A DNA stretch of 63,964 bases, the filler included, from Mitosporidium daphniae (Eukaryota), in the NCBI RefSeq assembly GCF_000760515.2. It is 5 parts of 5 records of this genome, joined end to end, with 100 filler letters (N's around TTAATTAATTAA, not from the genome) between each part and the next. Parts side by side here need not be neighbours in the genome. Positions count along the whole stretch, not along the records: positions 1 to 13,743 come from NW_013546709.1; 4 more parts are not named here. One strand, written 5' to 3'. The position numbers and the translations under genes were made by a program. Below the pieces are notes generated by a model. That model was not told where the DNA came from. It made no database searches and was given only the letters and a program-made list of their open reading frames with translations. Positions 2,170-40,892 of the stretch are shown one piece after another; positions within the stretch are counted from its first letter, which is position 1; every line of letters starts with the position of its first letter.

Positions 2170-3746
2170 TCAAACCGACGTGGTGTTGGCCAGCAGGAGT
2201 TCCAGGACACCAGAGACGGCGGAAACCTCTTCTTGAAGAGCAAGCTCATTTTGTATCCTAACACGGAACTTTGAAAGCAAATCAAGAATGCTCTGACGCT
2301 CAACGGGGTTTTTAATCGAAAAGGACTCCAAAAAGTCAACAAGTACTTGTAGAGATCGTATCATGATGGGCGCATGATGAGGATCTGTCGAATATTGCAG
2401 TAGCACTAGTGAGAGGCGTTTCAAATATTCCAGAGACCTTCCGGAAAATACTGCCAAAAGCACGCCTCGCCTTGCAAATTCTTCAAACAAGAGCGCCAAA
2501 ACAGAGGCAGACGGCGACTATTATGTAGGATAAAATAAATTCTGAAGCACTTACGGCAATAGCGACATCTAGCGCACGTCTGTGATCAAATGAGCGCAAC
2601 AGGGAATCGATTTCCCGATATTTTGGAAGAGAGGCCTTTTCCACCACAATTCGCGACGTCGATTTGGTTGCAGTTTTAGCGATAGGGGGAGATTCCTTTC
2701 GCTCCCTAATTGAGATTTGTCCGCTGGCCATTCCAACAGCAAGCCGGTTGCCGCCATCCTACAAAACGTCAATATAATCAAGCTTCGTACATTGAGTACA
2801 ACACACAGGATGGGGCTTCCATAAACAAAAGTGCGCTCAGTTCTCAATTCACCGGTCGCAGGATCAATACCAATCACCTTCACATGGTGATCTATAGAGC
2901 CCGTGAGGATTGACATCGTTTTTCGGTCATAAACCAGCGCTGTAATAGTCTTCTGGTGCGGCGTGTAAGAAAAGAGCGGGCTTTTTGAGGCCGTTGACGA
3001 AACTAGATCCCATCCGTAGATTTTCGAACCAGCTGCTGAATACAAAATTGAGCCAGAGCCGATGACCATGGACTCTACAGGCTCCTCGTGTTGGAAGGCG
3101 GCCAAAGTCTCTCCGGTCCGCAGGTCCCAGCAACGGATGCTCTTATCGTATGACCCTAACCCTAAAAGCACAATATGATACCTGAATAGAAAACATCTGG
3201 ATTCGAGTCTAGCGAAAAAGCCAAAGATTTTACATAATCCGTATGACCTTCAAAACGGGAAAGCATCTTTTCACCAAGGATGTCCCACAATCCCACTGTC
3301 ATATCTTCTGAGGCAGAAATCGCACGCCCGCTGTTTCCTAGAAAAGAAATCGCCGTGACAGCTCGTGTATGTCCTGAAAGTGTCCGCATTATTGATCGGC
3401 TCTTCACATCATGCAGCTGCATTAATCCAGAGACACAGCCAGAAAGTAGTAGTCGCCCATCTGATCTGTATGCGATGCACGTAATGTCCTCTTTGCATCT
3501 GGTAAGCCTTTTTTGGACTTCTGTAGAGGAGCCGCTACAAATGGATATGGTGCTTCCAGTAGCCCATGTAAGAGTTTCAGTCAGCGGCGTGAAAAGGACT
3601 TCCATTGCCGGGGAGCCTGTTTCAACACGGTGTGTAACCTTGAAGGTGTTCCAGTAAAGCATTCTACTAGACATGGTCTCGCCCTCAAGTGCCCTGCTCT
3701 TTTGCCGTGCACGCTCTGAAAGCCGACTAGGCAGGTGCAGCGACAT
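2170..3746 (-). CDS. UTP15: WD40 U3 snoRNP/SSU processome protein Utp15
   Basis: WD repeats (GHTRAV, GHTDYV, GSYDKSIRCWD, PHQKTIT) followed by a helical C-terminal region (LFEEFARRGVL...ELALQEE); several short introns link ORFs 3162-3746, 2569-3171, 2483-2731 and 2170-2499. Confidence 0.85.
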
Positions 3747-4794
3747 GAAAAAGTAAAATTTCGAATTATTTTTTTACTTAAAATGTTAGGGTTTGGGTTG
3801 AGGTTAGAGGAAAGTTGTACTAAACAGCGCTATCGATAGTCTTGGCGGTAAAGACGGGTTAGTGATAAGGCTTTGCCCTCCTCATTTGCAGTCACTTGAA
3901 AATGACAGGTGTGGGGGTTCCTTTTATCGGTTTTCAGCCCTCAATAGCAACTATGCATGAAACTGATATTCTCTCTTCGTCAGAGACAGGGTTGAGGCTA
4001 GCACTAAAATTAGGGCTAGGATCAAAAAGCTTGGGCTCAATATGATGATGATGTCTCAAGTTTGAGCTGCAAAAAAGGCTAGGTACATACAATTTTCCAC
4101 CGGCACCCTTTCAGCAACTGTTGAAGGCTGAGATCTGTCATTTCTACTTATTAATGGCCCTTTCTGAATGACAAACTTTAAATGCGGGCTTCTAGCTGAT
4201 ACCAGATTGAGTGCCTGTGTTTTCTCTTGTTCAGCAGCGACTGGTCTTGTTTCCTTTCTTTTGGCAAAAACAGGATCCAAAGTTAAAGCGAGAGCTTGCT
4301 CTTTCGTCCTTTTTTAAGAGTATTGCTTAAGAAAGGAGTAAAAATGAAAAGCAAAACCAGGAGAAAATACCTGTTAAGGCTTTGCTGAAATCGACAGTTT
4401 TGTGAAGAACAAGCTCGCCATTTTATGCTCATTTCGCATCCATTGAAAAAATCCCCTCAATGCTTGCAAATGTGGCTAGTTAGTTTCGAGTAAATTTTAC
4501 TACTGGATTCTTATACGTGCTACTTTTTTGGCCAGATGGATCTGCGCTAAGCATGCTATACGGAACCTCAATCACTCAATGGAAAGATTTATAAAAGGGA
4601 GGTGGACCATGCACTGCAATAAAGCTTTTCTTAAACGCTCCTGGAAAATCAAGTGCATAAAAACGTCTTAAGGTCAATAAATGTTAAAGAGACCGAGATT
4701 TAATGTGATGCTCAACATTGCACCCATTTGCTAGGAATTCGGTCTTTCCCAGAGGGTTCACCAGTCCAAGTCTATCCATAAGTGCATTTCACTT

Positions 4795-7102: not shown

Positions 7103-8440
7103 ATGATGTTCGAGGAGCCTGCCAATCCCCAAATCGACGCGGAGGCCTCTGCGATCATCCTCAACCAGGAGACAGTGTCTGCACCTTCCGCATTCATCAC
7201 ATCACAGAATGTGGATGAATGGATCGAGCAGCTCAAGTGCTGTCGTCTCCTATCCGAAGCGAATGTACAATTGCTCTGTGACAAGGTAACATTGAATGAG
7301 CCACTTCCCGGTCTATCTATTGATCAACCCATCGATGCAGATAATTTTTTCGAGTGTTTGAGCAGCCAATTTTTTGGCTGCATCCATAATTTGGCTGCTC
7401 AAACATTTATATTGATGGCATTTATGTTCCCATCCTGTTGGTGCTAATTTTATAGGCGCGGGAGATTCTCATGGGGGAGGGTGCAGTGCAGAATGTCACT
7501 GCCCCAGTGACTGTATGTGGCGACATCCATGGGCAGTTCTGGGACCTTATAGAGCTCTTTGAGATTGGCGGTCCATTACCGTATACTAACTACCTCTTCA
7601 TGGGCGACTACGTGGACAGGGGCTACCACTCCGTGGAGACGATCTCTCTGCTGCTTGCTCTCAAGGTCAAGTACCCTGCTTGTATTACGCTTCTGCGTGG
7701 AAACCATGAATCACGGCAGATTACACAGGTTTATGGGTTTTACGATGAGTGTGTTAAGAAATATGGCACACCAACCGTTTGGCGTCATTTTACAGATCTT
7801 TTTGATTATCTACCTCTAACAGCACTCATTGACGACGAGGTGGCACAAATTTATTTACTGATTCATAGGTACCCAAAGGGGACTTATTGATCACTTATTC
7901 CTAGGCATGATAGAGGCTTCTCATTTCATAGGTAATGTAAATTCGTCCGCTTATTTGAGATCTTTTGCCTGCATGGCGGATTGTCGCCGTCCATCGAGAC
8001 GATCGACCAGATCCGCACGATAGATCGTGTCCAAGAGGTTCCCGCCGACGGCGCCATGGTTGACCTGCTCTGGTCAGACCCTGATGACCGCAATGGATGG
8101 GGGCTTTCGCCTCGAGGTGCCGGATACACTTTCGGGTCTGATATTTCGCAAGCATTCAACACCAGAAACAACCTAAAGATGATTGCTCGTGCTCACCAGC
8201 TTGTGATGCAAGGATACAATTGGAGCCAGGACCAGGCAGTGGTTACGTTATTCTCGGCACCCAACTATTGTTATCGATGCAGCAACCAGGCCGCTATTAT
8301 GGAGATCGACCAGCAGTTGCAAGCGACATTGTATGTTTTGTTGGTAACCTTAACTCTCCTGCTTTAGCACGCAGTTCGACCCTTCCCCGCGGAGCAGCGA
8401 CCAGGACACCTCCAAGAGTGCCCTAGACTACTTTTTGTAA
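7103..8440 (+). CDS. Ser/Thr protein phosphatase 2A-family catalytic subunit
   Basis: [44 protein letters not shown] and C-terminal DYFL; introns 7286-7455, 7840-7959 and 8331-8367. Confidence 0.95.
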
Positions 8441-8689
8441 TACACCAGAGCATCAAGATCATCGTACACTTTGATAGAGGCATGCGCTAACCAGCGCATC
8501 GCAGTATTCAATTGCAAGCGTACATGTAAATCCCGAAATTTGGCCCTACTGTTGGCTGCCCAATGTGATTGGTCCTAACCCGTAAATGTGCAATTCACAC
8601 CCACGTGCATGTCCCCACATGCTAATGTGACGTGCGAATTTGCGGAGTCATAGGGGTACATACTCTAAGATCGGTTTATTTACACAAGT

Positions 8690-9999: not shown

Positions 10000-10948
10000 C
10001 TAAAGAGCAGATGCACCTGTAATGATATCCACCAGCTCATTGGTAATAACAGCCTGGCGAGTCCGGTTGTATTTCATCGTCAGACGTACGATGATTTCAC
10101 CTATGATATTATAATATGGACCACTTGCCTGCATTCTTTGTGGCATTTTCCATTGCCGTTCGCTTGGCGGCCATTTCGGCGGCATGACCCTCTGAGAGGG
10201 TCCAAAAAAGCTGGCTAGCAAATAAAAAGTCGCCATAGTTCATTAGTGCCTCTTCGTCAACCTCATACTTTTCAATGCCGTCTAAAAGTTACTTGAATTG
10301 ACCAACCTATGGACAGGAGAGAATCCGCCCGCAAGGCGGTAATTTCACTGCTTTCAAAGGCAATAACTGATTTGAAGTGGTTATAGAAAATTTTTATCAC
10401 CGACGGCTTGATGGGAAACTCTTTTTCTAAAGTATCTACGATATTAGAGGCATCAAGGAAGACAGGGATCACTCTTCCCAATTGATTAAAGTGGCCTGTA
10501 ATATAAGACCTCGCTTCGCGCGCAATTTGTGGTTTCGCCTTATCTCCAAGCACTAGCACTGCGGGTGAGGAGTTTGGCATTTCTCTAATTGTGTCTTTGA
10601 CGCTCTTCTTGACCAATTTAGAGATCGATGAGTGGATCGAACCACACAACCCCCTGTCGGAAGACACCGCGATAAGTAGAGGAGCAAAGTTTTCGTTTTG
10701 CGCTGGCGAGGGGACTTTTAAATGTTCATAAATTGCTACACGGACCATGTACAATCAAGGGCTTACTTTGCGTTGCTGCCCCATAGATTCTGCCGCAGTC
10801 CATTGCCTTTTGCGCGCGAGCCAGCTTCGTACTTGCAATCATCTTCATGGACTTTGTGATCTTTGCAATGTTTTTAATAGACTTTAGGCGCAGCTGAACT
10901 AGTCAATGGCTTTAAAGAGCGAGGCTTACTGTCCTTAAGCGTGGCCAT
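10000..10948 (-). CDS. ATP3: mitochondrial F1 ATP synthase gamma subunit
   Basis: [40 protein letters not shown]-terminal [23 protein letters not shown]; four short introns, one of them GC-AG (10101-10128). Confidence 0.96.
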
Positions 10949-16044: not shown

Positions 16045-17682
16045 ATGTTCCTGAAAACCATTTCAAAGATCCTTGGAGCCCAATTGCTTGACGATTTGAT
16101 CGCACATCCTGCGTTTTCGCTTGCAATTTTTAGGTTTTGTTCTGTTTTTACCCATAGATCGCTTCCTATGGAGGCCCAGCTCGTTGTTTCCAAACTGCTA
16201 TTTATGGATTCTCATATAGGGCTGAAGGATATTTATGAGCTAGTCTTTACACCGGACATGCCCTCCAGGTTTGCAATAAAAGCTTTACTGTATCAACAGC
16301 ACCTCAAATTCTACGCTTGCTACGTTGAAGGCATTCAAGTTGCTTCAGGGACTGGAGTCCAAAGTTTGGCTCAACCCGATGTTTTCAACTTGTCTAAGGG
16401 ACTCATTTTGCAATCTTGTGATTCCATCCAGCGCAAATAGGGTCTTCTTAAAAAGACCAACACATCCCGATGCATATCGACTGGATAAATCCTCGATTCT
16501 GACATACCAGACAAACACCTACAATGTATGCGGTTCTTATAGTAATTTTCGAGAAAATCCTGTCGATTTTGGTATCCTGCGAAGCGGCCCCGCTGGAAAC
16601 GCCATCGAAAACAAGTAAATCTAGCATTCCTACTTGTAGAAATTAAAATTTCGCAAAAGGATGCCTTTATGAGGCAATTGCTTATTTCGTCCGGATGTTT
16701 GCTGAACTCGACCGCTATAACTGCAACCGGATTTCAGTTTGTCCTTGAAAGCATCCAGTATCAACTCTGGACCCTTCTCTCTTCATATTTGCTGAAAATG
16801 GTATCATTCTTCGCTTAAATATAGTCCATGGAACAGCTGAAGGAATTTTGGCTGTTGATCGCATTGCTTGCATGGACCGAACCGTTTCTCGTACGTTTCC
16901 AGATGCTTTCTATTTTGTAGGACTATTCAGCTGAATGTTTGACCGACTTTCAAAATACCTGCATTTCGGATTTAAAGTACTTGGGAATCATCTGTCCGCC
17001 GGCGGTTAGTTGAAACCAATTTGAATACTTTCAATAGGGCGGTCAGGTAGATCGGTTTTATATAACACCGTTTTGCAGGCTACTTTTTGACAAAGAATCG
17101 TGTCCAGAGCATGAGCCTCGCCCCTTTGGTGACAACTTTCACTCTCCATCTGCCTCAGGTGGCTTTTTAATCATCGAAACCAATTACCGGGTGTACGCAA
17201 TGACCAATAGCAGCCTTCATATTTCCATACTGTCGCTGTTTGTTACCCTGAAGAATCATTTTCCCGGAATGGCTACCGGGGTGTTATCTCGCGAATCGTT
17301 ACAAAGCGCATTTGAACGGGGTTTAACATCCACCCAAATTTTATCTTTCTTCCGTTCAGTTGCTCACCCATCGCAAATTAAGGTGGCCATTGAAAATAAT
17401 TGGCCCACTCCGGTCCCACCAACGATCGAAGATCAGCTAAATCTATGGGAGCAGGAAAGATATAGGCTTGTCGCAACTCCGGCCGTCCTTTACACCGGCT
17501 TCAATACCAGTCTAGAATACGAGCAATTTGTCTCGAAAGCCGAATCTTTAAATTCTTTGCTTGCTTGTAGCTATCCGCTTGACAAAGACACCCCGAAATC
17601 AAACTTTGCTTCTCTGCAAAGGAAGCTGATGGTAATTTCAGAAGAGGGACATCAGAAGCTTCGGCAGGGTCTTGCCCGCTAA
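16045..17682 (+). CDS. TFB2: TFIIH subunit Tfb2/p52
   Basis: ITATGFQFVL..IQYQLW, GFLIIETNYRVYAMT, GLTSTQILSF, PPTIEDQLNLWEQE; seven introns of 24-33 nt reconstructed. Confidence 0.93.
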
Positions 17683-17700: not shown

Positions 17701-19645
17701 TTAATTGGTTAGAAATTCTACCACGGCGCTGCCATGTGCATCGTGGCTAATTAAGCTTTTTTGGTGAATTGCTCTTTCTGGATTTTGAATATTTCTACCA
17801 AGTGTTTGACAATAAAAATTAACCTTGTGGATAACCTTAGAGGGCTCTGGACTTGCTTTTGCTACAAATGAGGATCCCGTATGGTGGGCATCAACAAATG
17901 GATGGTCTGATAGCTCATTTAGCGAAGATTCCAAGCTCTCAAATATTTCCATTGATTTGCTTTTTTTCAGCGAACTTGGAGATATCTCATGCTTCCTTTG
18001 GATATCTGTTTTTTGCTTGAGATCACTTTCAAGCCTGTCTATGATGGCCAAGTATCCATTTTTCTCCGCCAAAAAGTCAATCTATGCGTTAAAAGGCATC
18101 GTTGGCACTTGGTTCTTTTTGATTATCTCGGAAATTTTCGAAGCCTGTTGAGATTCACGAGCCTATAGATGTTTATTACCGGGCCCAACATAACCTTTAC
18201 CGATTCATTCTCCGCCGATAAAGACAAAATCTCACTACAATGACATGATTTTATGGGTTGGAAAACCTTTTGAAGATTTTGATTTCGCCTCTGAGCGCCT
18301 CAATTACTTTCACATCGGCCATGTATTGACGATCCAAAGAATTATATCTATCCTGCCTTGTTAAAGGGAGGATCGATACCTCCGACTGAATCTCGCTGGC
18401 TTTGAAGTTTTCTATTTCCAATGCCAATTGCCTCTTGGCGAATAGTAAGAACGTAAATAATGAATACATTTTGATGGGTCTCTTTTTGAAGATCAATGGC
18501 CTGCTTTTCAGCTTTGCATTGAAGATGGCCGATTTCTGCATCTAGTCTAATTTCGTTTGCCTCGGGAACGGAAATACCTTTCCAGCATGTGGTCTTTTTC
18601 GTTGGATAAATCCAGGGTTGAACTACATCTGTCTTCAAGATTGGATAATGCCTCCTCAAAGAGGCGTTTTTGTTCATTTAGCCTTTTTTCATGCTCGCTA
18701 ACGGCCAATGCTTGCGACCGGGCATTTGATTCTAAGAAAGAGGCACTCGGATACCTATTTCGATTGCAAGTTTTTGCTCAATTTCGCAGATTCCTTGCTT
18801 ATATTTTTCCGCCTCGCCATCAAGGGTTTTTATTTGCGCAGATTTCGCCTCAATTGTCTCTTGTAGCGTGCAAGACTTGAGCTCGAGAGAATTTTCTAAA
18901 CAGATGACACCCACAAGTAGTACTTGAATGCGTCAATTTTTCAATCTCATCACTCAATTGGGACACATTTTTCCGTAACCTTGCAGCTTCTAAGCAAGGT
19001 TAACAAGATCGACTAACCCTCGATATATCCGTTGTTTTCAACGAGGGTGGCATTGGCAAATTCGGTGACCTGTTTCTCCATCAAATTAAGCTCGTCCATA
19101 TTTTTCTGGTAGGAAGAGTCCTTTTTTAGCAGCATCTCGACTCTACTGTTAAACATTGCTTTACCGCTGCGTTAGTGTAAGAATTTCGGAGGAGGAGTTT
19201 ATCATTTGTCCTTCCAATTCGGAAATGCCATTCAAGGTGCTCAATACATTTTCACAGACGCTATTTAGCGACCTTTCAGAGGTTTCCATCGAACTTTTCT
19301 ACAACTTTGTGAGCCAAACTTCAGTACATGAAAAAGCGCTTCATTCTGCACAGTTGTGCAGAATTTTAGAACATACCCAAGAATGGAGTACATGGTTTCT
19401 ATCTTTGCATGGATATCGGAGGCTGGGTTATATTCTATGCCAGAAGATACCATAGACGTTGTGTGTTTTGAGGCTTCCAAATCTTGATTGCTTGATGCAT
19501 CTGTGGTTCTGATTGCATGCGGCAGGGAACCCGGCCTTATTATTGGAGATGCAAATGACGAGATGGAGAAGATCGGTCTTTTACGTTGTTGGAATTCGTT
19601 CATGTAAAAAGTAGGCTTTTCCCAAATACTTTTTTGTGCTTGCAT
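17701..19645 (-). CDS. multi-exon coiled-coil protein of unknown function
   Basis: Chain of E/K/L-rich minus-strand frames (17701-18072, 18348-18677, 18732-18914, 19265-19645); exon boundaries and start approximate. Confidence 0.6.
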
Positions 19646-19800
19646 GAAACCAAGTGCAAATGCATTCAAACTTGCTGGACTCTCATTGCAGTAGGTTCCC
19701 AAATTAAATTGAAATAAACTAATTTGAATCGAAATAAAAACTTGAATCGAAATAAAAACTTGAATCAAATTGAATTAGCTTGAATCGAATTACATCCAAA

Positions 19801-24598: not shown

Positions 24599-26274
24599 TG
24601 GGCACTTTGAACAATTAATCTGTTGATTAAGCGTGTGTTGATAGTGAATTGCTAGCTTTAGTATCACACATTGCACAAAAGGGCTACAAAGTCTTAATTT
24701 GCAATAGCTGCTAGATTTAGGTCTTATCCCGATAAACCCAACTGAATGAGCACATTCCCGAAGCAAAAAGGGACCTCTGATGCTGGGATCAACATAAATT
24801 TCTCGGGTTAACTACCAAGCCAGCCAAATCAAGGGCCCATCAGGGCGGTGCCATTGACAGTAATCCATGTTAAAAACAGCACAAAGGCAATAATAAATAA
24901 AGAATGACATGCCTCCAAAAGTTTAAATGTGCAATCAAAGGATGTGTTGCGTTATGGGAGTCCCATAGCTCCAGGTTAGCCCCAAATAATGCAAACATTA
25001 AAATAGCCTTGTCCATCCATGAGGAGCATCCAGATCTATGCCGAGTTGAGGTTCACCATAACTTTCCTTAAGTCCGGAACATAAATGTAATTGTTCAATG
25101 GTTTTATCGAAAGCCACCCCGCACTTTGATCCGCAGGGGTAACGTCCATATATGGGTAAAAGCAAGCCAATTTCTCCGATCGGGATGCAATACCAAATAT
25201 GTTGAATTTAGGCTTGAATTTTGCCAATCTGAGTTTAAATTTGCACCCCATGATGTTGGTCAGGCAATCCAATTATTTGGGTGCATCCATGATTGTCTGC
25301 TTACCGCTTTTCACTAGGCGCGACACTCAAGATGCAAAGGTATATTAATTTCCAGAAGGATGGCGTTTTAACAAGCTACCTGCCTAGAGAAAGACTCAAA
25401 GGCTTTTTCTCCTCTTTACTATGGTTCTCGCGATGCCTTAGATTTTTCCAGCCCTTCAGACTGCTGAAGAGCAGTATAGCTTGTATAGCCATCATTGACA
25501 GGCATATCAGTCACCAAAGAAGCGTCCAGAGCTATTAATCGTTGAGTCAACCCTCGTAATTATCACATTATGCAGCAGCTGGACATAATAGTTAGCCATG
25601 AGGGTAGCCTTTTGGCTGCTTTAGGCTTTTTGATCAGGCATTGAAAGTATCTGAAAACAAATGACTGTCGGATTTCTATCCTTTACATGTAAAAAACAAT
25701 AATCGGCTTATCATATTCCCAGTCGTTTGGAGGGGAAAAGAATCAGAGTTTCAGCAGTTCATCAAACCTCTTTTTTATTATGTCACCGGTTTTTAATGTT
25801 TTTTGCCATAGAGTTTACGATTCACCAAATAACCGGAGCCGACTAATATCAAGCGGCAAGAGTTGCGAATCGTAGGCTTCTACTTTCTCGCCATGCACAT
25901 TGCTTGACGTTGTACTTTTCTATTCTTTATAGAAATGTGCATGCTATCAAAAAAGATCTAATTCTTATCGTGCAGACATATCTGTATACCCGGTTTACGT
26001 ATTCTTGCAGGGCAATAAACGATTCATTAAAGAGTTACAGGAACACTACTGGAAAGCTCGTACTTAATGCCCACTCTAACCCTACATTCCGAATCCGTTA
26101 TCTTTCAAGTTTCGCAAATCCCCGATCTGGTTAAATGCTCATATAGTTTGCTCTGCAAAGCCGGGCTCAAACCCCTAGGACTTGTACTTTTTATCACTTT
26201 GAATTTAGGGTTAGGGTTGGGATTAAAGATCGGCCATAATAGGTGGGCTTGAACCCATTTTAAATTCAATTTTC

Positions 26275-27394: not shown

Positions 27395-28065
27395 NNNNNN
27401 NNNNNNNNNNNNNNNNNNNNNNNNNNNNNNNNNNNNNNTTAATTAATTAANNNNNNNNNNNNNNNNNNNNNNNNNNNNNNNNNNNNNNNNNNNNGACTTG
27501 TTTGAGTGACCTGGAAAATGTAATAAGAGGCGGGCCGCTGCTTAATTTGAAAAGTGTGCCAGAAAAGAGCTGCGCCTTCGAAAAGCGCGATATTCACTTC
27601 CATTCCGCATATTTTGTATCTTTCGTCTGCTGTTCCCTTTTCGTCCATTTGATGTGGGTGCGTATTTTCTCACCCGGCACCTCAATGCACTTGGATATTG
27701 GCGATCGAGTAGGATCATTAAATCCAGCTAGCTTAGGGCTAAGCCACATGATCGACGCAAATATGATGCTTATCTAGTAAAGATGCAATCAAAACCGCCT
27801 TTATTTGGGATTAGTTTTAGTCGTTCTATTGATCCGTGCTATCAAATTTGAATTAATTTTTGGGCCAACGTGAAGAAAGGACATGTCGAACCAAAAGTTG
27901 CCAAAAGCTTACTAAAACCTACCAAAAATTTACTAAAATGTCATATTTTCAGTCTAATTAATTTAAAGGCCATTTTAGATATACATGTTGCGTTTTTGAT
28001 GAAAGCAGCAGCTTGGTTCGTATGAGCTTGATTTGTATCAGCTTGATTGGCATCAGCCATCAATC

Positions 28066-30740
28066 TCAAAACAATTCAAAAACAAGCAAGGAAATGGAAG
28101 CGATCACAATTCTAACAAAGTCAGTGTGGCGAGCAGAGGCTGAATTGCCATCAATTTTAGGCAAGCATCCAGCCTCAGTGGCATTTGCTTCGACAGTCTG
28201 TATGGCGTCAACAGTACCACCCTGCGACGCAAGTGCTGCTGATATATCTGAGCTATCCTTTTGCTCAGCACCTTCATGCTTTTGATGCATTCTCCACAAA
28301 AAGTACACTATTGCAGCGGCGAGGTCAAGACAAATGAATGCAAATCCAACTCCAAGAATCCTGGGCAAATAGTAAGAGAAAGTGCTTAATGCAGAATTCC
28401 TAGATACGTTGCGATGGTTACGGTACAGGAGAGTCGCCACGACGAAAATGACAACGAGCCCAAACAAAACAGCCTGTTTGAACAGAAAGCCCAAAATATA
28501 ATTTCTGAGGTTTCTTTTGCAAGGTTTGAGGTCTCCCGGAAGCAAATGCAAATTAAACAGATCCAGATCGACGGGAATTTTAGGGTCCTTTGCACATGCT
28601 TTGAGGCACAATTTCCGCTCACAAACCCCGAACTTTATACCAACATTTGTGAAGTTGCACTTTGCGGTATCTCTAAACTGCAATTGTGTGTGCTTCAATT
28701 GCTTCAATAGCTTCAATCAAGATGGATTGCTAGATTTTCGTGAAATAGATCCATTGCTGCAACACAGAGCCGTGATATCTTCAAGCCTTTGTAGAGCCAC
28801 CTAAAAGACCAACGGCGCCACCAGAGCATGCCAGATAATCAAGCATGTCTTCCAAATCGATTTGAAAAAATCGAACCTTTCCAGATCGTAGATTTTTATC
28901 AGTGCAGGCGACAAAAATAGGTCGGATTTTTGAGCTTTCCAGCAGCATCGTTCATTATGACAAGTAGCCTTGCTTCCTCGAAAATATCAACAAAAAGACG
29001 ATTTCGTATGTGTATGTATCCCGTTTAGATTGATGGACCCACAACAGTTGTTGCAAAATCTTTTGTAAATGCAGCCCGCAACTTAGCAAGTTGAGCTCCA
29101 ATATTCCAAAGGGTAAATTTTTTGCATGCCATACTTGGGTCTTGAATGTTTTAATCAGGATGCTCCTCCGCTTTAGCATATTGCAGCTTTCAAATTGGAC
29201 AAAGGTCTCTGTATCTAACGTACGAAGAGTATTTCCGGTCGATGGAACCGATGATCAGGGGTTAGAATTTCCGAAAATGTCTTTCCCATCTTGCTAGCTT
29301 GAGATTTTAAAGTTCAAACAGCAGCCATCGCATGCTTTCAGAAAAATATCCACCTTAGCTTATCGATAAAATCTGGATCGTTCAGTTTGAGAATATTTTC
29401 GTAGCTGGACATTAAAAGATGTTCAACCCCTTGGAAAGCAATGCCTGTCGGGGTAAGAGTGCCTTTTTTCTGCTTCCGATCCCTCTGGAGCCGATGCAAA
29501 TGAGAAAAGTAATCTTTTTCCAAAGCAGCCTTTTGATCGGATCTTATGGAGTTTGGAAAATGTTCATTTCCAAGCTTAATGTCTCCGTGTCATTTGTGCT
29601 CAGTGTTGATCGCATATTTTGTTCATTTTGCAGCAACGACCAAAAAAAGGCTAATTTGGTGGCGTTAATTTTTGGAATCACTATTTGGATCTTACACCAG
29701 ATTCCATCCGACAGCCTTCCGGCTTTTAAGAGCTTTTGATAAAGCATTTGGTAAAAACAGGCATAGAAAAAGCGGCCAAAAATTCAAATAAATTGTTGAG
29801 ATTGACATTTGTTTCAAAGCAATACGCCTGCTCAGGTAGACATACACAAAAATATCGGGATTTTTCAGAGCGTACTTTTTCAAGCAGCCAGAAGTGGCCC
29901 TCTGCACGCAACTGTCTCTTGACTTTTGCATTTCCATGTCATGGTAGTCAGCACGCACTGGTATCTTGTTGAAGCCAGGATCCTTTTGATACATTGGGTT
30001 AGAATGATTTCTACAAACGCCCAGCATCAAAAAATGCTGTCGTACGGGTCTTCAAAATAAAGCGCATCAAATCGGGATTTTTCAAGCAGCACCGAATTTT
30101 GAATTGATTTTGAACTTGAGCGGCATGGTTTTGAATTTGTGGACAATTTTCCGTGCAGAAATGCAGAGAAAAAGCAGTCCAGCTATCGATTTTCTCTCGA
30201 TTAAGAACAATTTTTTGGAATCAAAATCGACATCGGACATGCCTTTAAAGCCCCCAAATGGTACAACGTACCGCTGTATGCAAACCTTGTCTGCTGGATC
30301 AAATAAACTCAATGGGAGGTCATACCGGCAGAAAAGGCGCCGTCTTGATGTTTCGATTACCAAATGACTGGAAAAGCGCTAGCTCAGATCATTGATATCG
30401 TTTTCAAGGCAAGCAGGTGGATTCATGGCAAAACAATGGGCGATGCGACCGATCAATTTCCGGTAAATTGGATCAAAGGTTGACAAATTGGAATGCTTGT
30501 TTGTAAATCGAAGCTTGGCAAATATCAGATTTCCCACTGTTGCTTGTCCAACAATTCATGCTGCCGAGCACATATAACAAGCAACCACACCGTAAACTAA
30601 ACAACTAATTACCAAACTGGCTATCCAAATGACCTTTTCATGTAATTTACCACATCCAGTTTAACGATCCAAATTCACATATACTGCGGTTTTTCCGTCG
30701 TTTGGAGCGTTGCGCATGTTTTTCTTGCGTTTCACGACAT
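28066..30740 (-). pseudogene. degenerate copy A of tandem multigene family
   Basis: Fragments homologous to 38671-40824 (EQAYCFETNVNLNN, QNEQNMRSTLSTND, GCLPKIDGNSASARHT) broken by many stops and frameshifts. Confidence 0.75.
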
Positions 30741-31419
30741 GTTTTCAGAGCAGTCGATCGAATTATTTGACATTGGCTGATGGCCGCATGTTTTGGACAC
30801 CGTTGTTTTTTCCTTTAGACCCATCTGAGCAGCTTCCTTTTCTGCTTTCGCTGCCAAAATACAGGGCGAACACCACTACACCCCCTTGGATCACCCTCTG
30901 AACTTGCGTCAATACGAAGTTTTCGAAAACCTTCTTGCATCGTTGCTCCCAACTACGGATTTGTCCCACTTCTAAATTTAATCTAATCCAATCCAATCTA
31001 ATTCCGCCTGCACTCTGATTCGTCCATCGGCCCAATTTGCAATTTCCCCCCATGCTGCCTTGAAACCAAGTGTCCCTTCCATAACTCCGTTTATTACGAA
31101 ATAAAGCATAGTAAAACCTAACCCTAAAACTCGATTGATTCATACCAGACCCGGAATTGAGTCAAGGTTGGAGCTGATATTGGCGATGCGAGCGACTGCA
31201 TAGTTCCAGTCTACTCGATCGGAATCTGGTCGTATTATAATCCAAAAACGAAGCCCACATGCTAGTTCACATATCCGACATATAGTACGATCGGGGCAAA
31301 GCCCAACAGAGCCTGAGCTTGCTTATCAACTGACGCAACCAATGTGGATGATGCATGGGACTTTCATTAGTGAACCTAAGTAAGCCCAGAAAGGGGTGGT
31401 GGTGTTTATATTATCTATT

Positions 31420-33312
31420 TTATTTCATTCTAATCGATTCTTTCTGTGTGTGAAAGCTAGATTTCTTTGCTGCATTTTTTGGCTCTAGTGCCCGCATAAC
31501 AGCTCGAACATCGGCATCATGAGCTTTTTGTTCAGAAGCAATAGCATCCTCAAGAAGCATATTTTTGTTGATAGCATTTGTCATAAGATCGAGAGTGGCA
31601 TTACCATCGTCGAGAGTTTTGAATGGACCGTAAGAGATACTGTTGTTTACAGCGTGGTGCAGGTAGATGGTGATGTTTTCACCAGCAGGATTTTTAGGGT
31701 CCCATTCGATATCAAGCAAACCGACATTAGAAACATTGGTGGTAGAATTTGGTGAGGCGATCAAAAGGGTTTCAGGATAAAGAAGAACAAACATAGACGG
31801 AGATCCACTGCTTCCGATCGAAGTATCCACAGTTAGGCTGTAGGTTCCAGCAGGTACATCAATAGAACTCAAATTAAGAGAGGCATTTCCATTGTTTTTG
31901 ACTGAAAAATAATCGTTTTTCATCGTGTTCTGGTTAATAATGGTAATAACGGCAGGAGTAGTATTTTCATCGAACGGAGTCCATTGGACAGATAATGAGG
32001 CAGAGTTATTGTAAATAATAGATTCGGAGTTGGGAACCAGAATATTCAGGGGAGTAGCACTACTCACGATCAAATAGTCAAATCCAGAGCCCATATTCGA
32101 ATCAACTTGGATTTTATACCTTCCTGGAAACAGCCCAAATGATGTAACATCGTCTGAATATGATCCTGTATTTGGCACTTCAAGTGTTTTCAGCAAAGAA
32201 TCATTGCCACTGTATACAGAAAGATTAACAAGGGGTTCGCTAGGATCAATGGGAGACCAATTGACATCGATAGCACCACCATCAGACATAACAACGCTTG
32301 GATCAATAATAACGTTCAAGGTGGCACTATCAAACATGGTGAGCTCGATGCTGTCAGAGCCAAGCATTGAATCGATAGTAAGACTGTACGTGGCTGGTGA
32401 TTTCGGCACTTCCCATTCTGAAGCGCTCAAAAAATAGTATCCAATGTTTGGCACATTAGACACATTCTTATAAGCGAGTCCATCCTTCCCGGTTAGGGTT
32501 AGGTTTACGAATTCCTCAGCTTTATCGAATGGTTTCCATTCGACAATTGTGAAACCATTAATTGAAGAAATGCTGTCTGGATTAACTGTGACAGCGATCG
32601 TGTTAAATTCGGTGGTAATAGCAAAACGATTTGAGGAACCAATTCCAAGGGAGGATACTAATTTCAATTCGTAAATACCAGGAGGATATGAAAGCTCAAC
32701 ACTGGTAGATCCGGTATCAGCAAGGTTTGTAGCAATAATACGTTGAGAACCGCTTGAGACGCGGGCGATAGATATGTTCACAGTATCAGAAATGTTGAAT
32801 GGAGTCCAAGAAAGACCCAAAAACTCGCCAGTGGGAACCTTATCCGTATCAGTCTTAACAGAAAGGGGATTAGGCGCGAGAACGAGAAACGAATTTGATA
32901 CACCTTGGCCAAGGGCATTGGAGACAAGGATGGCATACATTCCTGGCTTAAAAGAACCATAATTTTCCAACACAATAGTTGCATTTCCAGTATCTTTGGT
33001 TTGCGATTCGGGAAAAATTTCATCCGGATTCGCTAAACTTTTAAGAGAAAGTGTAGCATCATAGCTATCATGACCAGAAAAAGGATCCCATTCCACAAAA
33101 ATAGAAGAATATGGATATATTTCGCCCAAAGCAGTGACATTAACACCAAGACCTTTGCTTGCGTGTATAATGAACGGAGCAGTTGTTCCATTAGAAATCG
33201 ATGAGGTTATGTTTGCAAAGTAGATACCAGGTTTTATCGACATCACAGATGACGCCGAAAATAAAGCTAAGCACATACAGAAAAGAAGAGCTGTTATTCG
33301 CTTTGGAATCAT
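31420..33312 (-). CDS. secreted/surface protein with about six ~90-aa beta-rich (Ig-like) repeats
   Basis: Signal peptide MIPKRITALLFCMCLALFSASS; repeated V.W.P.D ... NTG ... PG.Y.L.V.S.LG pattern; many N-x-S/T sequons; intronless. Confidence 0.8.
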   Translation of the reverse strand: MIPKRITALLFCMCLALFSASSVMSIKPGIYFANITSSISNGTTAPFIIHASKGLGVNVTALGEIYPYSSIFVEWDPFSGHDSYDATLSLKSLANPDEIFPESQTKDTGNATIVLENYGSFKPGMYAILVSNALGQGVSNSFLVLAPNPLSVKTDTDKVPTGEFLGLSWTPFNISDTVNISIARVSSGSQRIIATNLADTGSTSVELSYPPGIYELKLVSSLGIGSSNRFAITTEFNTIAVTVNPDSISSINGFTIVEWKPFDKAEEFVNLTLTGKDGLAYKNVSNVPNIGYYFLSASEWEVPKSPATYSLTIDSMLGSDSIELTMFDSATLNVIIDPSVVMSDGGAIDVNWSPIDPSEPLVNLSVYSGNDSLLKTLEVPNTGSYSDDVTSFGLFPGRYKIQVDSNMGSGFDYLIVSSATPLNILVPNSESIIYNNSASLSVQWTPFDENTTPAVITIINQNTMKNDYFSVKNNGNASLNLSSIDVPAGTYSLTVDTSIGSSGSPSMFVLLYPETLLIASPNSTTNVSNVGLLDIEWDPKNPAGENITIYLHHAVNNSISYGPFKTLDDGNATLDLMTNAINKNMLLEDAIASEQKAHDADVRAVMRALEPKNAAKKSSFHTQKESIRMK

Positions 33313-33604
33313 GGTTGCATACTTTTCAATACAACATTCGCTATTTATTCTTTTCATGCTGTTAAGCTGACATGTTTGCAGTGACGGAAATAGATAAACA
33401 AAACAACAACAAATAAATAGGATATTAACCAACGAGAGGCGTGCCTTTTGTGTGCGAAATCACTTTTCGATTTGAAAATATAAACAAACATAAATAACAC
33501 AACATTCGACCAAATTAGTCAGCGATGTTTGGGCTAGGGTTGGGATTTGGCCAAAATTAATTTCATTGAAACTGCATGTTGGTCCACATTATATATTGCC
33601 CATA

Positions 33605-35110
33605 TCAGGAGGCCCAATTAAATAACTGACGTTTAAATGCCCATGTCACACATCCTAACCCAGGTTCAATATTTTTGATTTCGTATGCGATCACATTAAT
33701 CGCCATGGCGGTTAGCATCAAGATAAACAAGAGCCCCTTTTGATAGAGATTCAAAAAGCTATCAAGTTGCGCTCTAGATTGAAATTTAGAGATTTGTATG
33801 ACAACAACGTATTCGAGCTCAAGATGTTTAATCTCAATGATATTTCGCAAAATAGTCTGTTCGAGTTCTGTCAGTCGGAAAGAAAAGCATTCCATAGCCT
33901 TTTCATGGTACTTTAAACAGACAACTCAATATACGATGACAAGGTCGAATTTTAGGTGATGGCTTTGCATCTTGAAAAGAGGACCTTACATGTGGACTTG
34001 ATCCCCTTAAAAGAGCCCAGACCACAGTAGAGATATCAAAACAATGTGATGCCATGAGAAGCCTTTCTAATAGAATAAAATCGCAATTCCAAGCTTGGAA
34101 AGCAAAAGAACGCTTTTCGTGTGTGGCTATGCGGGTGAACCTTGAACTTCCCGTCTTTGTGGAGAGAAAATGTCCAAAACAGTGGTCAATCAATCATGTT
34201 GATCTTGAGGAATGCAAACAGTATCGGTTCGTGCCAAAGAAGCGGGGGGCAGAGATCGATGAATTTGTACCAAATTTGATGAAAGTTGACGTTTCGTGCA
34301 TTGCCTGTAAATTTCGTGATTGTCTATATATAAATTTTGTGAATTGCCTTTAAATTAGATTAATTGTCTTTCAATGGGATTAATTGCATTAAATTGGAGG
34401 CCGCTAAATATCCGAGTTGTTATGGGTTAGTTTGTTGAAAAATTGGCTGCATTTTTACAATACATTTTATTTGTGCTGATGCTGTTTAAAGCATCCAATA
34501 TGCAAGTTAAACTAACAATCCAGACTGGCTATCCAAATGGCCTTTTCAACAGATCCAAATTGACTCGTATTGCGGTTTTTGAGCCGTTTGGAGCGTTGTG
34601 CATGTTTTTCTTGCATTTTACGGACATTCCCGATCGTTCTGTATCATTTTGGTCCGTTTTCGAGACAATAAAATTTTCGACATTTTCGACATGTTAAGCA
34701 TGGCATGGTTGGAGAGAGAAAATCCGCATTTTCAGTTCAGCAAGTAAAATTAAATTTGAAGTTAGGGTTAGATGCTTGAATTTTCAATTAATTTCAATTC
34801 TAGTTCGAGGTCTTCTCTTTCCAATCTCTCTATGCATGCCATGCATGTCTCGAACATAAAATTTTGCATTTTCCAGCGTCGAGCTAGGCTGCACGGAACA
34901 GGAGTCTGGATGCCGAAACTAACAATGGCGCCTTTGACAAGTGCTGTCTTCGCATTCATTCTGCATATTTTGTCTCTTTTCTCTGTGGTTTCTTTTTCGT
35001 CCATTTGATGCAGAAAGGTATCTTTCACTCGGCACTTCAATGAAGGTTGGATGCTGAAGATAGGATAGCACCAAAGAATCGATCTAGCTTTGGGTTGGCC
35101 CACATCATCG
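33605..35110 (-). pseudogene. degenerate fragment of the duplicated unit
   Basis: 34200-34275 matches 37780-37855 and 34585-35110 matches 37880-38405 at the DNA level. Confidence 0.6.
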
Positions 35111-35156
35111 ACGCAAACTCTAAATAAAGGTCCCTAAATTTGAGCCGATTTTGCTT

Positions 35157-37920
35157 TTAACCTTTATGGTGGTGTGCATTGGAATTAATTTTGGGGTCAA
35201 TGTACAAAAAATTTACTAAAATATTCCATTTTGCGCATAAAATTAGACTGATCCAGATTGAACGGTCCTTTGCACACATGCCGAGGTACAATTTCCGCTC
35301 AGAAACACCAACCTTTATGGCAACGTTTGTCAAATCGTACTTGGTGCTGCCTTTTGACGGCGACTTGATAGGCCTCAATGCCCTCAATAAAGATGGCTTT
35401 TTGAATTTCGCTGCAAAATACATCCATTCTGCAAGATTGGCTCATGAGCTGCGATAACTCTTAAAACAATAGGTTTCAGCCTCGTAGATCTATCCAATCG
35501 CTGCACAAGAGTATGCCAGATAATGGTGCATGTCTTCAAGTAAAATTCTTCCACATGATAAAAGCTAATCAGTGCAGGCGAGAAGAAAAAGTCGCAAGGA
35601 TTTTTGAGCTTTTCATCAACATCGTTCACTGTGACAAGCAGCCTCACTTACTCGAAAGATATCAACAAACACCGGCTACTTTGTGTATGCATCATCATTT
35701 AAGCCGAGGCGACCAACAGCGGTTCTCGTAAACTCTTGTAAATTTGACACTCAAACGAGCAAATACAGCATCCGATATTCCAAAACATGATTTCTTTGCA
35801 GAGGCTACATTTGAACCTTTCACGGTTTCATCATCATCTTCTTGCTTTTGAACTGAGTTCTGCTTTTCGGTGGATTGGACAACAGCATCGCTAATTCACG
35901 CAACATTTTTGGCAAGCGATTAAATAGAAGGCATCACAAACACGAGGAGGAACATCTTTGCTGTGTTGCTAGCTTGAAAAAATTCTAACCCTTTCAGACT
36001 TCCAAATACCACCTTCTGAAAAAGATCCATTTAACCCGACTAGTTGACTTTGCATTGTTCAGATTGAAAATCTTGTCCCAGGTGGGCATTGAATTTCCTT
36101 CAGGATAGGTGGGATACCAAAAGCTCTTCAAAACCTTGGAAAACCCTTCTTGCCAGAGTACAAGTGTTTTCTCTTTACGATCCCTCCTGAACTGGTTCAA
36201 GTGCGCAAAAGTAAAAATTGCTTTCAAGGCAGCTTTCTTATCTAATTTTATGAACTCTGAAAAAAGGGTGATTTTTGATGTCAATTCTTGGTTATCATTT
36301 GCACTGAGCATCGAAAGCATATTTTGATCATTTTTTAGGATTGAAGAAACGAAAATCTTAATCTGGTGGCGTGGATATTTTTTAGACCGAGTCGACGGAC
36401 TAAGAGTCGAAATTCCATTAAATACCTTTCGAGATCTCAGGAGCGCTTGATAAAAGCATTTGGTGGAAACAAGCGTCGAAAAAGTAACCACGCAAAGTGC
36501 AGATGGATTGTTGACATTGACATTGATTCCAAAGCAATGAGGCTGGTCAAGATGCAGCAAAATATCCTCGTTTTTCAAACCGCACTTGGTTTCAAAGAAC
36601 GAGAATTAGCCCTTTATAGGCAAGTCTCTCCAAATTTTTCGAGGCTTCATTTAATAAACGATCACATTTTTCTCTTCATCGTACTAGACCACGCACTTGT
36701 ATTTCTTGGAATCCAGAATTTCTTGCGCTACCTTAAAGTTTGAATGATCCTTCAAAGAGCGCCAACATCAAACAGTGCTGTCGTGCTGGTTTCCAAAATC
36801 AAAGCATCAAAGCATCAAATTGGGCATCTTTTTGTCAAAAAGCCCCATAGTTTCGAATTTCGGGATAATCTTTTGTGTAGCAATTTAGAGGAGCAAAAGC
36901 AAACGAATTGTGGGTTCGTCTCTCGATGACACAAGATTGTATGATATCAATATTAACCTTCGGGATCGCTTCAAAGTTCATCCAATTGTATAAGATACTG
37001 CTGTATGCAACGATCTGGCTGCAAGATAAAATAAATTCAATGGGAGATGATAAGATCCGATGAGGCGATTTTTTGATGCCCTCAATTACTGCATGCTTCA
37101 AAAAGGCCTTGAGATTTTCGTAATTTTCGCATATCTTTTCTTTTAAATGGCTAAATATTCGAAAACGGACGACTTGCTTTTCCTCGTGCTTTTTTCAAGT
37201 TCGTCATAATGATAAAGTTTCAGAGTGGAATAGATATTCTCTTCGTTAAAGAATAAAGGAGCCTCGCTGAGACCTTTCATTTCGTTTTCAAGGTAAAATT
37301 TTATCAAAATTGCAATGGCAAATATCTGGTTTCCAAAACTTCTGCTTTCTCTTGGTGCATTTTTCATCGAATATGAGATGGGATATGCAAACAGAGATTC
37401 CATGGATGCTCCGCACCTGACATTGCGAACATTCTCCCAGAAATCGACAAAAAGGTGATCAGCGATCAAAACGCGAGTTTTCTCTTACTGGTATTTTTCA
37501 AAATCTTTTCGAACCTCTTGTTCAATATCTTTTTGAAGAACTCGGTATAAGATCGCTCAAGTGAATTCTTCATCTCAAAAATGGTGATCTGTTTTCTCGA
37601 TTTTGCGACCGGAATATCTTTTTGTCTCTCAAAGACAGCAAACAGTCAATAAGCAGATCAATGACCTTCCCGTGTTTTTCATGTGGCTCGTTTGTGTCAA
37701 CCCCAAAAAAGAGACCCATTTGAATGTTCAGTTTTCTGCAACTACAGCTCATTTCTGGTATCAAGGTGTCATTTCTTTGATCTTGAGCAATGCAGGCAGG
37801 TTGGATTGATGTCAAAAGAACGGGGACCAGAGATCGATGAATTTCTACCAAATTCACTCCTATTTCGGTGTGTCGGCTGTTTGGAGCGTTGCGCATGTTT
37901 TTCTTGCATTTCTTGGACAT
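35157..37920 (-). pseudogene. degenerate copy B of tandem multigene family
   Basis: 35994-36578 nearly identical to part of 40015-40824 (LDQPHCFG, YQALLR, KKYPRHQI, ANDNQELTSKITLFSE); multiple frame breaks; C-terminal TM part lost. Confidence 0.8.
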
Positions 37921-38670
37921 TCCCTGTCATTCCGTGTCATTTTGGTCTGTTTTCGAGACAATAAAATTTTCGACATTTTTCGACATGTTAAGCATGGTAT
38001 GGCTGGAGAAAGAAAATCAGCATTTTCAGTTCAGCAGGTAAAATTAAATTTTGATCTAGGGTTGGTTCCAAAATTTTCAATTGATTTCAATTCTAGTTCG
38101 TGGTCTTCTCTTTCCAATCTCTCCATGCATGCCATTGCATGTGTCGAACATGAAATTTTGCATTTTCCAGCGTTGCGCTAGGCTGCACGGAACCGGCATC
38201 TGGATTCCGAAACTAGCAATGGCGCCTTCGACAAGCGCGGTCTTCACATCCATTCTGCATATTTTGTCTCTTTCGTGTGCTGTTTCTTTTTGGTTTGTTT
38301 CATTTGGGCACTTATCTTGTAGCCCGAAATCCCAATGCACTTGGATATTGAGAATAGAATAGCATCATCAAATCCAGCTAGCTTAGAGCCAAGCCACATC
38401 ATCGACACAAATATGATGCTTATCTAGTGAGATGCGTTAATAAACAATGACCAAAAGATGAAATGAAACCCGCCTTTATTTTGGATTAGTTTTGGTCGTT
38501 CTATTTATCCGTGTTATCAAATTTGAAAGAACGACGTGTTCAACCAAAATTTTCTCAAAAGCTTATTAAAACCTACCAAAAGTTTGCCAAAAGCCTACTA
38601 AGCCTACCAAAAATTTACTAAAATGTCATATTTTCAGTTTAATTAATTTAATTGGCATCAGCCATTAATC

Positions 38671-40892
38671 TCAAAGCAATTCCAAAACAAGGAAGAAGAT
38701 GGAAGTAATCAAAATTCCAACAAGGCCAGTGTGGCGAGCAGAGGCTGAATTGCCATCAATTTTAGGCAAGCATCCACCTTTGATCGCATTTGCTTCAACA
38801 CTCGTTAAAACATCCTGAGACGCAAATGTTGCTGATCGACTTGAGCTATCCTTTTTTTCAGCATTTACATGATTTTGATACGCTACCCACAGGCCATAAG
38901 TAATTGAAACCGAAACTCCAGCAGCAACCAGCGTCAGTTTGGCGGTTCGCGAAATCAGCAAAAAGTAATGAGAGATGCTTATTGACGACGGTTTGGATGC
39001 ACCATAGTAGTGAGAGTATAAGAAATATGCACTCCATCCAATGCAAAGCAAAAAGAATCCACCGATGACGGTTGATTTAAGCATAGTGCTTTCATAGCGC
39101 ACTTTGGCCTCTGGGTTGGAGTAAGCGGATTCTTCCGCCGTTAAATTAGCATTTGTAATTGAAAGATTCTCTGGTTTAACGTTAATGGAGAGCCTCTCAG
39201 ATGCTATTGGCTCGCTGTCCTTTTCATATATTTTGAGGCGCAATTTCCCTTCAGAAATGCTTGTTTTTATGGAAACATTTTTGAAATCGTATTTTTGAAT
39301 ACCTTTGAATTGCCCCTTTATACGTCTCAATACCCTCAATGAAGATAGCTTTCTGAATTTGATTGCAAAATAGATCCATTTCTGCAAAATTAGCTCATGA
39401 GCTGCGATAAAACCAAAAATCAAATCTCTATCAGCCTTTGTACAGCTATCTAAAAGATCCATAAAACCAATGGCACCACCAGAGTATGCTAAATAGTGAA
39501 GCATGTTTTCAAGTAAAATTCTTCCACATCATAAATGTTGATCAGTGCAGGCGAGAAGAAAAAGCGAGAGGGATTTTTGAGCTTTTCGGCGACATCGTTC
39601 ATTGTGGCGAATACCTTTTTTCCTTTGAAAATATCAACAAACACCGGATACTTTGTGTATGCATCGTTCAAATTGAGGCGATCAACAACTGTTGTTGCAA
39701 AATCTTTTGTAAATTTAGCCCTTAAATTATCAAGTACAGCATCAGATATTCCAAAAAGTGAAGACTTTGCAGGGATTAAATTTTTGTCTTCGAGGTTTTC
39801 ATGAATCTGTTCCTGCTCTTGGACAGATTCCTGCTTTTGGACAGATTCCTGCTTTTGGACAGATTCCTGCCCTTGCGTCGATTGGACAACAGCCTCGCTA
39901 TCCAATGCAGGGGTATTTTCAACCGATGGAATCAAAGATATGTTAAAATTGCGGAAAAAGGTGTCCCCTGTCTCGCTAGCTTGAAAGAATTTCAAAATTT
40001 CAGATTTTGAAATATCAGTTTGAGAAAAAAAAGATCCATTTAAACTGATTGATAGACGTTGGAGTGTTCGGGCCAAGAATCTTGTCCCAGTTGGGAATTT
40101 GATTGTCTGCAGAGGAATATGCGGGAGACCAGAAGCTCTTCAAAACATTGGAAAAGAATTCTTGCCAGGGTACAAGTGTTTTTTCTTTACGATCCCTCTT
40201 GAGCTGGTTCAAATGAGCACAAGTAAAAATTGTTTTCAAAGCAGCCTTTTTATCAGACTTTATGACCTCTGAAAAAAGGGTGATTTTTGATGTCAATTCT
40301 TGGTTGTCATTTGCACTGAGCGTCGAAAGCATATTTTGATCATTTTTTAGGATTGAAGAAACAAACATCCTAATCTGGTGGCGTGGATATTTTTTAGGCT
40401 GAGTGTACTCATTAACAGTCGAAATTCCATTCAGCAGCTTTCGGGCTCTCAAGAGCGCTTGGTAAAAGCTTTTAGTGTACACAAGCGTCGAGAAAGTAAC
40501 CACGCAAACTGCAAATGGATTGTTGACATCGACATTGGTTCCAAAGCAATGGGGCTGGTCAAGATACAAAAAAATCTCATCATTTTTCAAATTGTGCTTG
40601 GTTTTAAGAAACAAAAATTGGCCCTCTACAGGCAAATCCCACCCGATTCTGCCAGTTTCCGTTTGATAAGCGATCACATTTTCTTTTTCATCGTAATAGA
40701 CGACGCAATTGTATTTCTTTGAATCCAGGATTTCGTGTGCTACCATGGATTTGGAATGAGTCTTCAAAAGAGCACCGACATCAAACAATTGTGTAGTGCT
40801 GGTTTCCAAAATGAAGGCCATCAAAGAATCAAATTGGGCATCTTTTTTGCTACGAAGCCTCAGATTTTGACTTCAAGATAAAATAAATTCAG
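38671..40892 (-). pseudogene. least degenerate copy C of tandem family (DUF3638-associated-like domain plus C-terminal TM helices), split into three frames, 5' end in gap
   Basis: ORFs 40015-40824, 39489-40076 and 38671-39504 are collinear with copies A and B; one break lies at an A8 tract (40025-40032). Confidence 0.7.
39819..39872 (-). repeat. 18-bp tandem repeat x3 encoding QESVQK
   Basis: ttggacagattcctgc repeated with period 18. Confidence 0.9.

Follow-up and report, generated by a model that had tools for sequence, protein, structure and literature searches.

The stretch of DNA analysed here (the window; 63,964 nucleotides, filler included) consists of five contigs of Mitosporidium daphniae, a water-flea parasite, joined by N-linkers. 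It contains a PP2A catalytic gene whose exon 3 is 100% identical to P0006, the M. daphniae protein that NCBI names as PP2A catalytic subunit. A model with four coding exons (Table 1) yields a protein of 336 amino acids that agrees with P0006 by eye. Between exons 2 and 3 lie 120 nucleotides, 7840-7959 (the 120-nt block), which the annotation behind P0006 treats as one intron; standard annotation of this type therefore cannot show whether the block is a stack of smaller introns, as an earlier note on this DNA had proposed.

Removal of the whole block is required by the protein, as that note had argued: P0006 matches the spliced product, and the spacing before IFCLHGG is identical in 117 of the 120 homologues listed, P0006 among them. 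Of the remaining three, one has a 24-amino acid insertion and two were unmatched by the pattern used. At the protein level, then, these 117, P0006 included, carry no insertion that would point to exonic sequence between the inner sites. When all GY...AG paths through the region were enumerated, the reading frame stayed open only with full removal, with a 7-amino acid insertion, or with loss of IFCLHGG (a 13-amino acid deletion). The second of these outcomes corresponds to a hidden micro-exon, in which 7916-7936 would be retained as an exon of 21 nucleotides, with an intron on each side, and would contribute seven residues. Apart from the IFCLHGG deletion it is the sole alternative with an open frame, but we regard it as scarcely credible, given that the extra residues are absent from P0006, that the 117 homologues have no insertion there, and that a second GAG acceptor would be needed.

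Contigs of two sequencing runs, X13 (study P2) and X15 (study P7), carry the block unchanged, which rules out an assembly artefact; X13 differs from the window at three exonic positions (7767, 7986 and 8211). Runs X2, X8 and X12 also cover the 120 nucleotides unchanged, but may themselves be the source of the window DNA. The other isolates are too similar to inform on conservation of the inner sites. Contigs of eight runs span introns and show no spliced joints, which bears on neither mode of removal.

Table 1. Features of the PP2A catalytic gene, and introns of PP2A-family genes at the position of the 120-nt block. Site scores are compared with those of 40 local introns.
Feature	Coordinates	Strand	Evidence or remarks
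Coding exon 1 (aa 1-61)	7103..7285	+	Gene model, P0006
Intron 1, 170 nt, untiled	7286..7455	+	Lacks an internal TAG and any AG/G
Exon 2, ending ...LIDDE, phase 0	7456..7839	+	Pfam Metallophos positions 2-107
Unit 1, 29 nt	7840..7868	+	GTG donor scoring above 0/40 reference donors (weakest); TAG acceptor
Predicted 14-bp hairpin over junction 1, spanning the branch region and acceptor of unit 1 and the donor of unit 2	7859..7893	+	-12.8 kcal/mol
Unit 2, 36 nt	7869..7904	+	GTA donor above 24/40; TAG acceptor above 36/40; ordinary-intron-like
Unit 3, 27 nt	7905..7931	+	GCA donor above 5/40; TAG acceptor above 37/40
Unit 4, 28 nt	7932..7959	+	GTA donor above 18/40; rare GAG acceptor above 9/40
Exon 3, beginning IFCLHGG	7960..8330	+	P0006 identity; Metallophos positions 110-190
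Intron 3, ordinary, 37 nt	8331..8367	+	Gene model, P0006
Exon 4, including stop codon	8368..8440	+	Gene model, P0006
PP2A-family introns of other eukaryotes, same position	L070:2475-2516, L071:1289-1330, L078:1042-1080		One ends in AAG

As a reference for splicing in this genome we used 40 short introns of the window, collected with a simple gene finder and by frame inspection; intron-rich genes at 4040-4720, 24800-26250, 53640-54170 and 61130-62330 were left out of the models. The reference introns are 22-37 nucleotides long (median 28) and end in TAG in 38 cases, in CAG in one and in GAG in one. Position +3 of the donor is A in 32, T in eight and G in none, and a single donor is GC. Of the 39 introns that end in YAG, 38 use as acceptor the nearest YAG that lies 21 nucleotides or more from the donor; this first-YAG rule is partly circular because the gene finder gave preference to GTA, to TAG and to introns no longer than 40 nucleotides. 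The rule holds in 15 of 15 introns in a subset whose flanks match one Pfam family or P0006 (support is weak for two of them, in a WD40 and an RRM gene, whose flanks match different repeats), and all 15 are 23-37 nucleotides long with a TAG acceptor.

Sites that depart from the consensus do occur in short introns of the window. They comprise a GAG acceptor (16526-16553, +), an AAG acceptor (18434-18467, -) and a GTG donor (18082-18108, -), all inferred from the reading frame, and a Pfam-supported GC donor (10101-10128, -). The last, in ATP3, had been offered as a precedent for the GC donor within the block, and Pfam positions run continuously from 252 to 254 across that intron. The corresponding precedent for the GAG acceptor, at 16553 in TFB2, agrees with the reading frame, but the flanking exons have no Pfam match; since no homologue of the last TFB2 exon was found at E 1e-8, this acceptor remains frame-based. 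The GTG donor and the AAG acceptor belong to two of four frame-inferred introns of one unnamed gene that were identified later and stand outside the set of 40. Together these sites suggest that length outweighs consensus in the short introns here. Two further introns, 18163-18200 (-) and 3156-3181 (-), have a second donor or acceptor six nucleotides from the end that keeps the frame, so that alternative splicing of two amino acids is possible from the sequence. A gene at 17701-19660 (-), without Pfam matches, has about ten introns of 22-38 nucleotides.

Against this background, the 120-nt block divides exactly into four units (29 + 36 + 27 + 28 nucleotides) at the coordinates first reported. 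The inner junctions read TAG/GTA, TAG/GCA and TAG/GTA, with no exon between units; each unit starts with an intact GY, ends with an intact AG and meets its neighbour without gap or overlap. The unit sizes are indeed typical of the window, and all three inner acceptors are TAG, like those of nearly all local introns. Scores of the inner sites fall mostly inside the range of the 40 local introns, and the weakest sites are the outer ones (donor GTG, acceptor GAG). A YTNAY motif with its A at -7 to -9 is present in each of the four units, although this motif is weak, being found in 25 of the 40 real introns and in 43% of shuffled ones.

Full tiling of the block into units of 22-37 nucleotides is rare by chance. 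Among 200,000 dinucleotide shuffles, it arose 136 times with NAG/GY junctions, 32 times with YAG/GY, 11 times with TAG/GY and once with TAG/GYA. Three or more YAG/GY sites placed anywhere in the block are commoner (1,868 shuffles, 0.9%). A scan for internal junctions across the 64-kb window, of the kind the earlier note had called for on a genome-wide scale, detected 339 intron-like units on both strands and two chains: units 2-4 of the block (unit 1 fell under the threshold) and a pair in TFB2 (16102-16157). The TFB2 pair was rejected as a second stack, as the first of its two 'units' is readable as part of the coding sequence. No other chain in the window reaches three units, no second stack was found, and a Pfam search of 102 of 834 ORF pieces, taken from genes without a name and from regions outside the models, gave no sign of another long intron. 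Chains of three or more units appeared somewhere in 2 of 60 block-shuffled windows, a window-wide figure that alone amounts to about 0.03. The tiling is strong despite this milder figure, because the chain sits in the one gap that has to be removed and ends on the exon boundary.

The possibility that an AT-rich long intron acquired AG/GY sites at fitting spacing by luck gains something from the two milder frequencies above and from the pattern having been chosen after the fact. We nonetheless consider it very improbable: full tiling was recovered in just 32 of the 200,000 shuffles, there were only two long introns to choose from, and of the 40 real acceptors 36 score below that of unit 2 and 37 below that of unit 3. 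The tiling of the 120-nt block is a real, non-random feature.

The best-supported reading of this feature, to which we assign a probability of roughly 0.62 on the sequence evidence, is that the block is removed stepwise. An ordinary U2-type spliceosome would excise it in three or four rounds, cutting at zero-length exons. Each donor would pair with the nearest YAG that is 21 or more nucleotides away, which would place the cuts at 7868, 7904 and 7931; iterated from 7840, the first-YAG rule returns exactly these three junctions. Every cut would leave a fresh GT or GC donor. The last unit would take the GAG at 7959 because no YAG lies within reach of 7932 (none occurs 21-40 nucleotides from this donor). 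Since every unit has its own donor and acceptor, the order of removal would in principle be free, and not necessarily 5' to 3'. Because a TAG exposed without a regenerated donor would make a dead message, the inner donors are likely to be under purifying selection. A one-step route, by comparison, would have to pass over four TAGs and pair the weakest donor with a GAG, an acceptor that is rare here.

The number of steps in stepwise removal depends on how the RNA folds, and all structural results given here are thermodynamic predictions. A hairpin over junction 1 (Table 1) was equalled by only 2 of 1,365 artificial joins of real introns, and is predicted to form once its 3' arm has been made. 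It would cover the unit 1 acceptor and the unit 2 donor, whose predicted pairing is 0.79 and 0.81, values each reached by 1 of 40 real sites; the inner sites are predicted to be more paired than most real sites. Acceptor 7904 has a predicted pairing of 0.02 when just transcribed and 0.25 in full context, rising to 0.5 in two intermediate prefixes, and the hairpin leaves 19 + 11 = 30 single-stranded nucleotides between donor 7840 and this acceptor. Folding would thus favour bypass of junction 1, though not of all junctions. Units 1 and 2 may accordingly merge into one intron of 65 nucleotides, giving three steps (65, 27 and 28 nucleotides). With junction 1 predicted to be hidden, three steps are as plausible as the four originally proposed, and between the two counts the odds are about even in this model.

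The same predictions bear on removal in one step, in which folding would hide the inner sites and bring 7840 near a branch point at about 7953, leaving the tiling as a relic of intron growth by stacking or duplication, or as a minor route. In its best fold as an isolated molecule, the block has its 5' part paired with 7930-7950 and its last nine nucleotides free. None of 60 joins of four real introns folds as stably as the block, whose stability has a z-score of -1.87, matched by 8 of 200 shuffles; the rarity of the junction-1 hairpin among controls points the same way. With exon flanks included, the long-range fold of the block is lost and replaced, and acceptor 7904 is mostly open, so that even with the hairpin in place the first reachable TAG would be an internal one. 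A relic is also hard to reconcile with units whose interiors are no closer to one another than unrelated introns are (5 of 6 pairs with p > 0.5; units 1 + 2 versus 3 + 4, p = 0.77) and yet retain all three junctions intact.

Further points in favour of one-step removal come from other long introns. It is possible in principle because long introns are evidently spliced here, the 170-nucleotide intron 1 of the same gene being one. Intron 1 contains a long predicted hairpin (z -4.47, equalled by 0 of 200 shuffles) that includes an inverted repeat with 18-bp arms at 7355-7372 and 7388-7405, 94% complementary, and probably brings its donor near its branch point. Hairpin-aided bypass of inner sites has been proposed for Hypoxylon stwintrons, according to the accessible part of PMC8469720, and in human introns shorter than 1 kb conventional lariats outnumber recursive ones, recursion being present but mostly a minor route (PMC10156609, as far as its available text goes). 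Weighing these points, we judge one-step removal unlikely, though the strongest of the alternatives.

A tiling of intron 1 like that of the block was rejected, as none of its five inner AGs is followed by G; its lack of an inner TAG is not significant (4,241 of 20,000 shuffles). On the folding model, it may be a hairpin-shortened intron or a small-RNA carrier. The PP2A gene therefore holds both a tiled 120-nt block and a TAG-free hairpin intron. The spliceosome here is not limited to about 30 nucleotides, given the length of intron 1 and the published M. daphniae S23 intron of 152 nucleotides (available portion of PMC6349667). A softer limit can be put forward tentatively, and we give it less than even odds: the Rozella-Mitosporidium spliceosome may be tuned to introns of about 28 nucleotides, and longer ones would survive in two forms only, as hairpins free of TAG or as gapless stacks of minimal units whose members are obligatorily excised singly. 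Intron length would then grow in quanta.

Retention of any one or more of the four units introduces an early stop in 15 of 15 combinations, which bears out the earlier statement that incomplete splicing gives a dead message. As an argument for stepwise design this observation is empty, since a phase-0 unit that is a multiple of three and ends in TAG has an in-frame stop by construction; in unit 2 the sole stop is its own last three bases, the acceptor. A dead message on retention is also normal in this window, where 33 of the 40 ordinary introns shift the frame if kept (their lengths not being multiples of three), and the proposed delay or dosage control on PP2A is unsupported.

Regulation could take another form, with the inner acceptors serving as unproductive alternatives, or the junction-1 hairpin as a switch, and decay of the products setting PP2A dose or timing. 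Each partial product does stop early, the outer sites are the weakest, and both long introns of the modelled genes lie in the PP2A gene. The early stops are nonetheless what retained introns here usually give, and they are automatic for units of this kind; a pure trap would require no donor behind each acceptor; and the 80 metagenome loci offer no close relative to show conservation. We regard a regulated trap as quite improbable. For stepwise removal no regulatory role is needed, as purifying selection suffices.

In sequence, each of the three TAG/GY junctions shows the hallmark of recursive splicing, an inner 3' splice site that abuts a 5' splice site. The comparisons that follow draw on those portions of the cited papers that were accessible. 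The earlier note described recursive splicing as known mainly from very long animal introns, but splicing at zero-length exons has already been demonstrated in short fungal introns. The closest case is BOT1 (CNAG_07884) of C. neoformans, a protein-coding fungal gene in which an annotated intron of 375 nucleotides consists of abutting introns of 210 + 165 nucleotides with a zero-nucleotide exon, proven by junctions and branches (10.1101/224170). Unlike BOT1, with its single pivot in 375 nucleotides, the PP2A block has three candidate pivots in 120 nucleotides, and all its pieces are of modal-minimal size. Zero-length exons also occur in a 336-nucleotide intron of S. pombe SPNCRNA.445 (10.1101/226894) and in Candida and Debaryomyces snoRNA clusters (PMC5033589), again short fungal introns in which a 5' splice site comes immediately after a 3' splice site. 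These hosts are non-coding and bear snoRNAs, for which the PP2A units of 27-36 nucleotides are too short. A search of 7200-8500 against Rfam at E values up to 10 found no snoRNA, though a divergent one could escape it; the five matches were all miRNA-type hairpins in intron 1, far under the cut-offs. A snoRNA-hosting long intron was therefore rejected, there being no box C/D or H/ACA match in Rfam.

In long introns of Drosophila and human, ratchet points regenerate a donor at YAG/GT (10.1101/006163; PMC10156609). Such points are sparse and lie in kilobase introns, whereas the PP2A block has the same type of junction without filler. Tiny fungal introns are defined across the intron (PMC7138796), and short-intron definition would make each PP2A unit self-sufficient, in contrast to ratchet points. 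The block resembles stwintrons of the [D] and [A] types in that several U2 units share one intron position and would be removed by consecutive reactions under intron definition (PMC7138796, PMC6616335, PMC8469720). In a stwintron, however, the inner intron splits a splice element of the outer one and so forces the order, whereas the PP2A units abut and none is split; abutting introns are treated as a separate type (PMC6616335). A stwintron in the strict sense was rejected, as no unit interrupts the donor, branch or acceptor of another. Within the same lineage, the stem-loop introns of Microsporidia and the M. daphniae S23 intron are likewise rare, long, structured introns among miniature ones; as described in the accessible text, they differ in being treated as single introns and in having a conserved inner region with snoRNA-like boxes (PMC6349667).

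Among the papers listed by our search, which covered main texts in the open literature, none deals with stacking of introns or recursive splicing in Mitosporidium, Rozella or Microsporidia, and the available portions of PMC13149111, PMC8476143 and PMC5381614 contain nothing on them. Nor did it find, with partial full-text coverage, a description of introns wholly tiled by minimal units. Zero-length-exon splicing is thus known, and wall-to-wall minimal units are apparently a new form of it. If removal of the block is both stepwise and obligatory, recursive splicing would be a consequence of a hard limit on intron definition, and not merely a remedy for giant introns. With three re-splicing points in 120 nucleotides, the block would also be the smallest test case found for the reuse and order of ligated junctions, and it would show concretely how an intron can grow at an old position, one that other eukaryotes share.

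A metagenome scan for relatives of the gene gave 80 loci. Three of them (L070, L071 and L078) have phase-0 introns of 39-42 nucleotides at the position of the block. The same three also share the position of intron 1; they are mutually similar and perhaps represent one lineage. Human PPP2CA has introns at the same positions too. Judged from these sequences, the intron position of the block is old. No Mitosporidium-like PP2A relative was present among the 80 metagenome loci, the best having 65% identity.

Recent copying of the units appears unlikely from their sequences: five of the six pairs are no closer than 780 control pairs (p > 0.5), and units 1 and 2 stand out only at an uncorrected p = 0.03. 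Junctions 1 and 3 have a 10-mer in common (p = 0.033). No second copy of the intron was found in any other contig of runs X2 or X8 at 85%. The stack could have arisen from a two-unit module duplicated long ago, from an insertion into the AG/GT boundary, or through the subdivision of a long intron.

Several other features of the window deserve mention. The telomere-repeat-like motif AACCCTA, which we take to be the 'telo-box', occurs at 17 sites versus 4.8 expected, a number reached in 0 of 100 shuffles (for example at 2118, 3787, 26206, 26212, 31120, 33535, 34763, 54560 and 62314). Many of these sites lie, by eye, just upstream of genes, and the motif is possibly a promoter element. A gene at 54896-56626 (-) has an RS-rich start, RRM domains by Pfam and four short introns, and to our eyes resembles the U2AF large subunit. 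Finally, several ORFs in the region 27500-40900 are diverged paralogues and in part broken; their flanks are repeated, and hardly any of them matches Pfam. They would represent either a lineage-specific gene family or decayed repeats.
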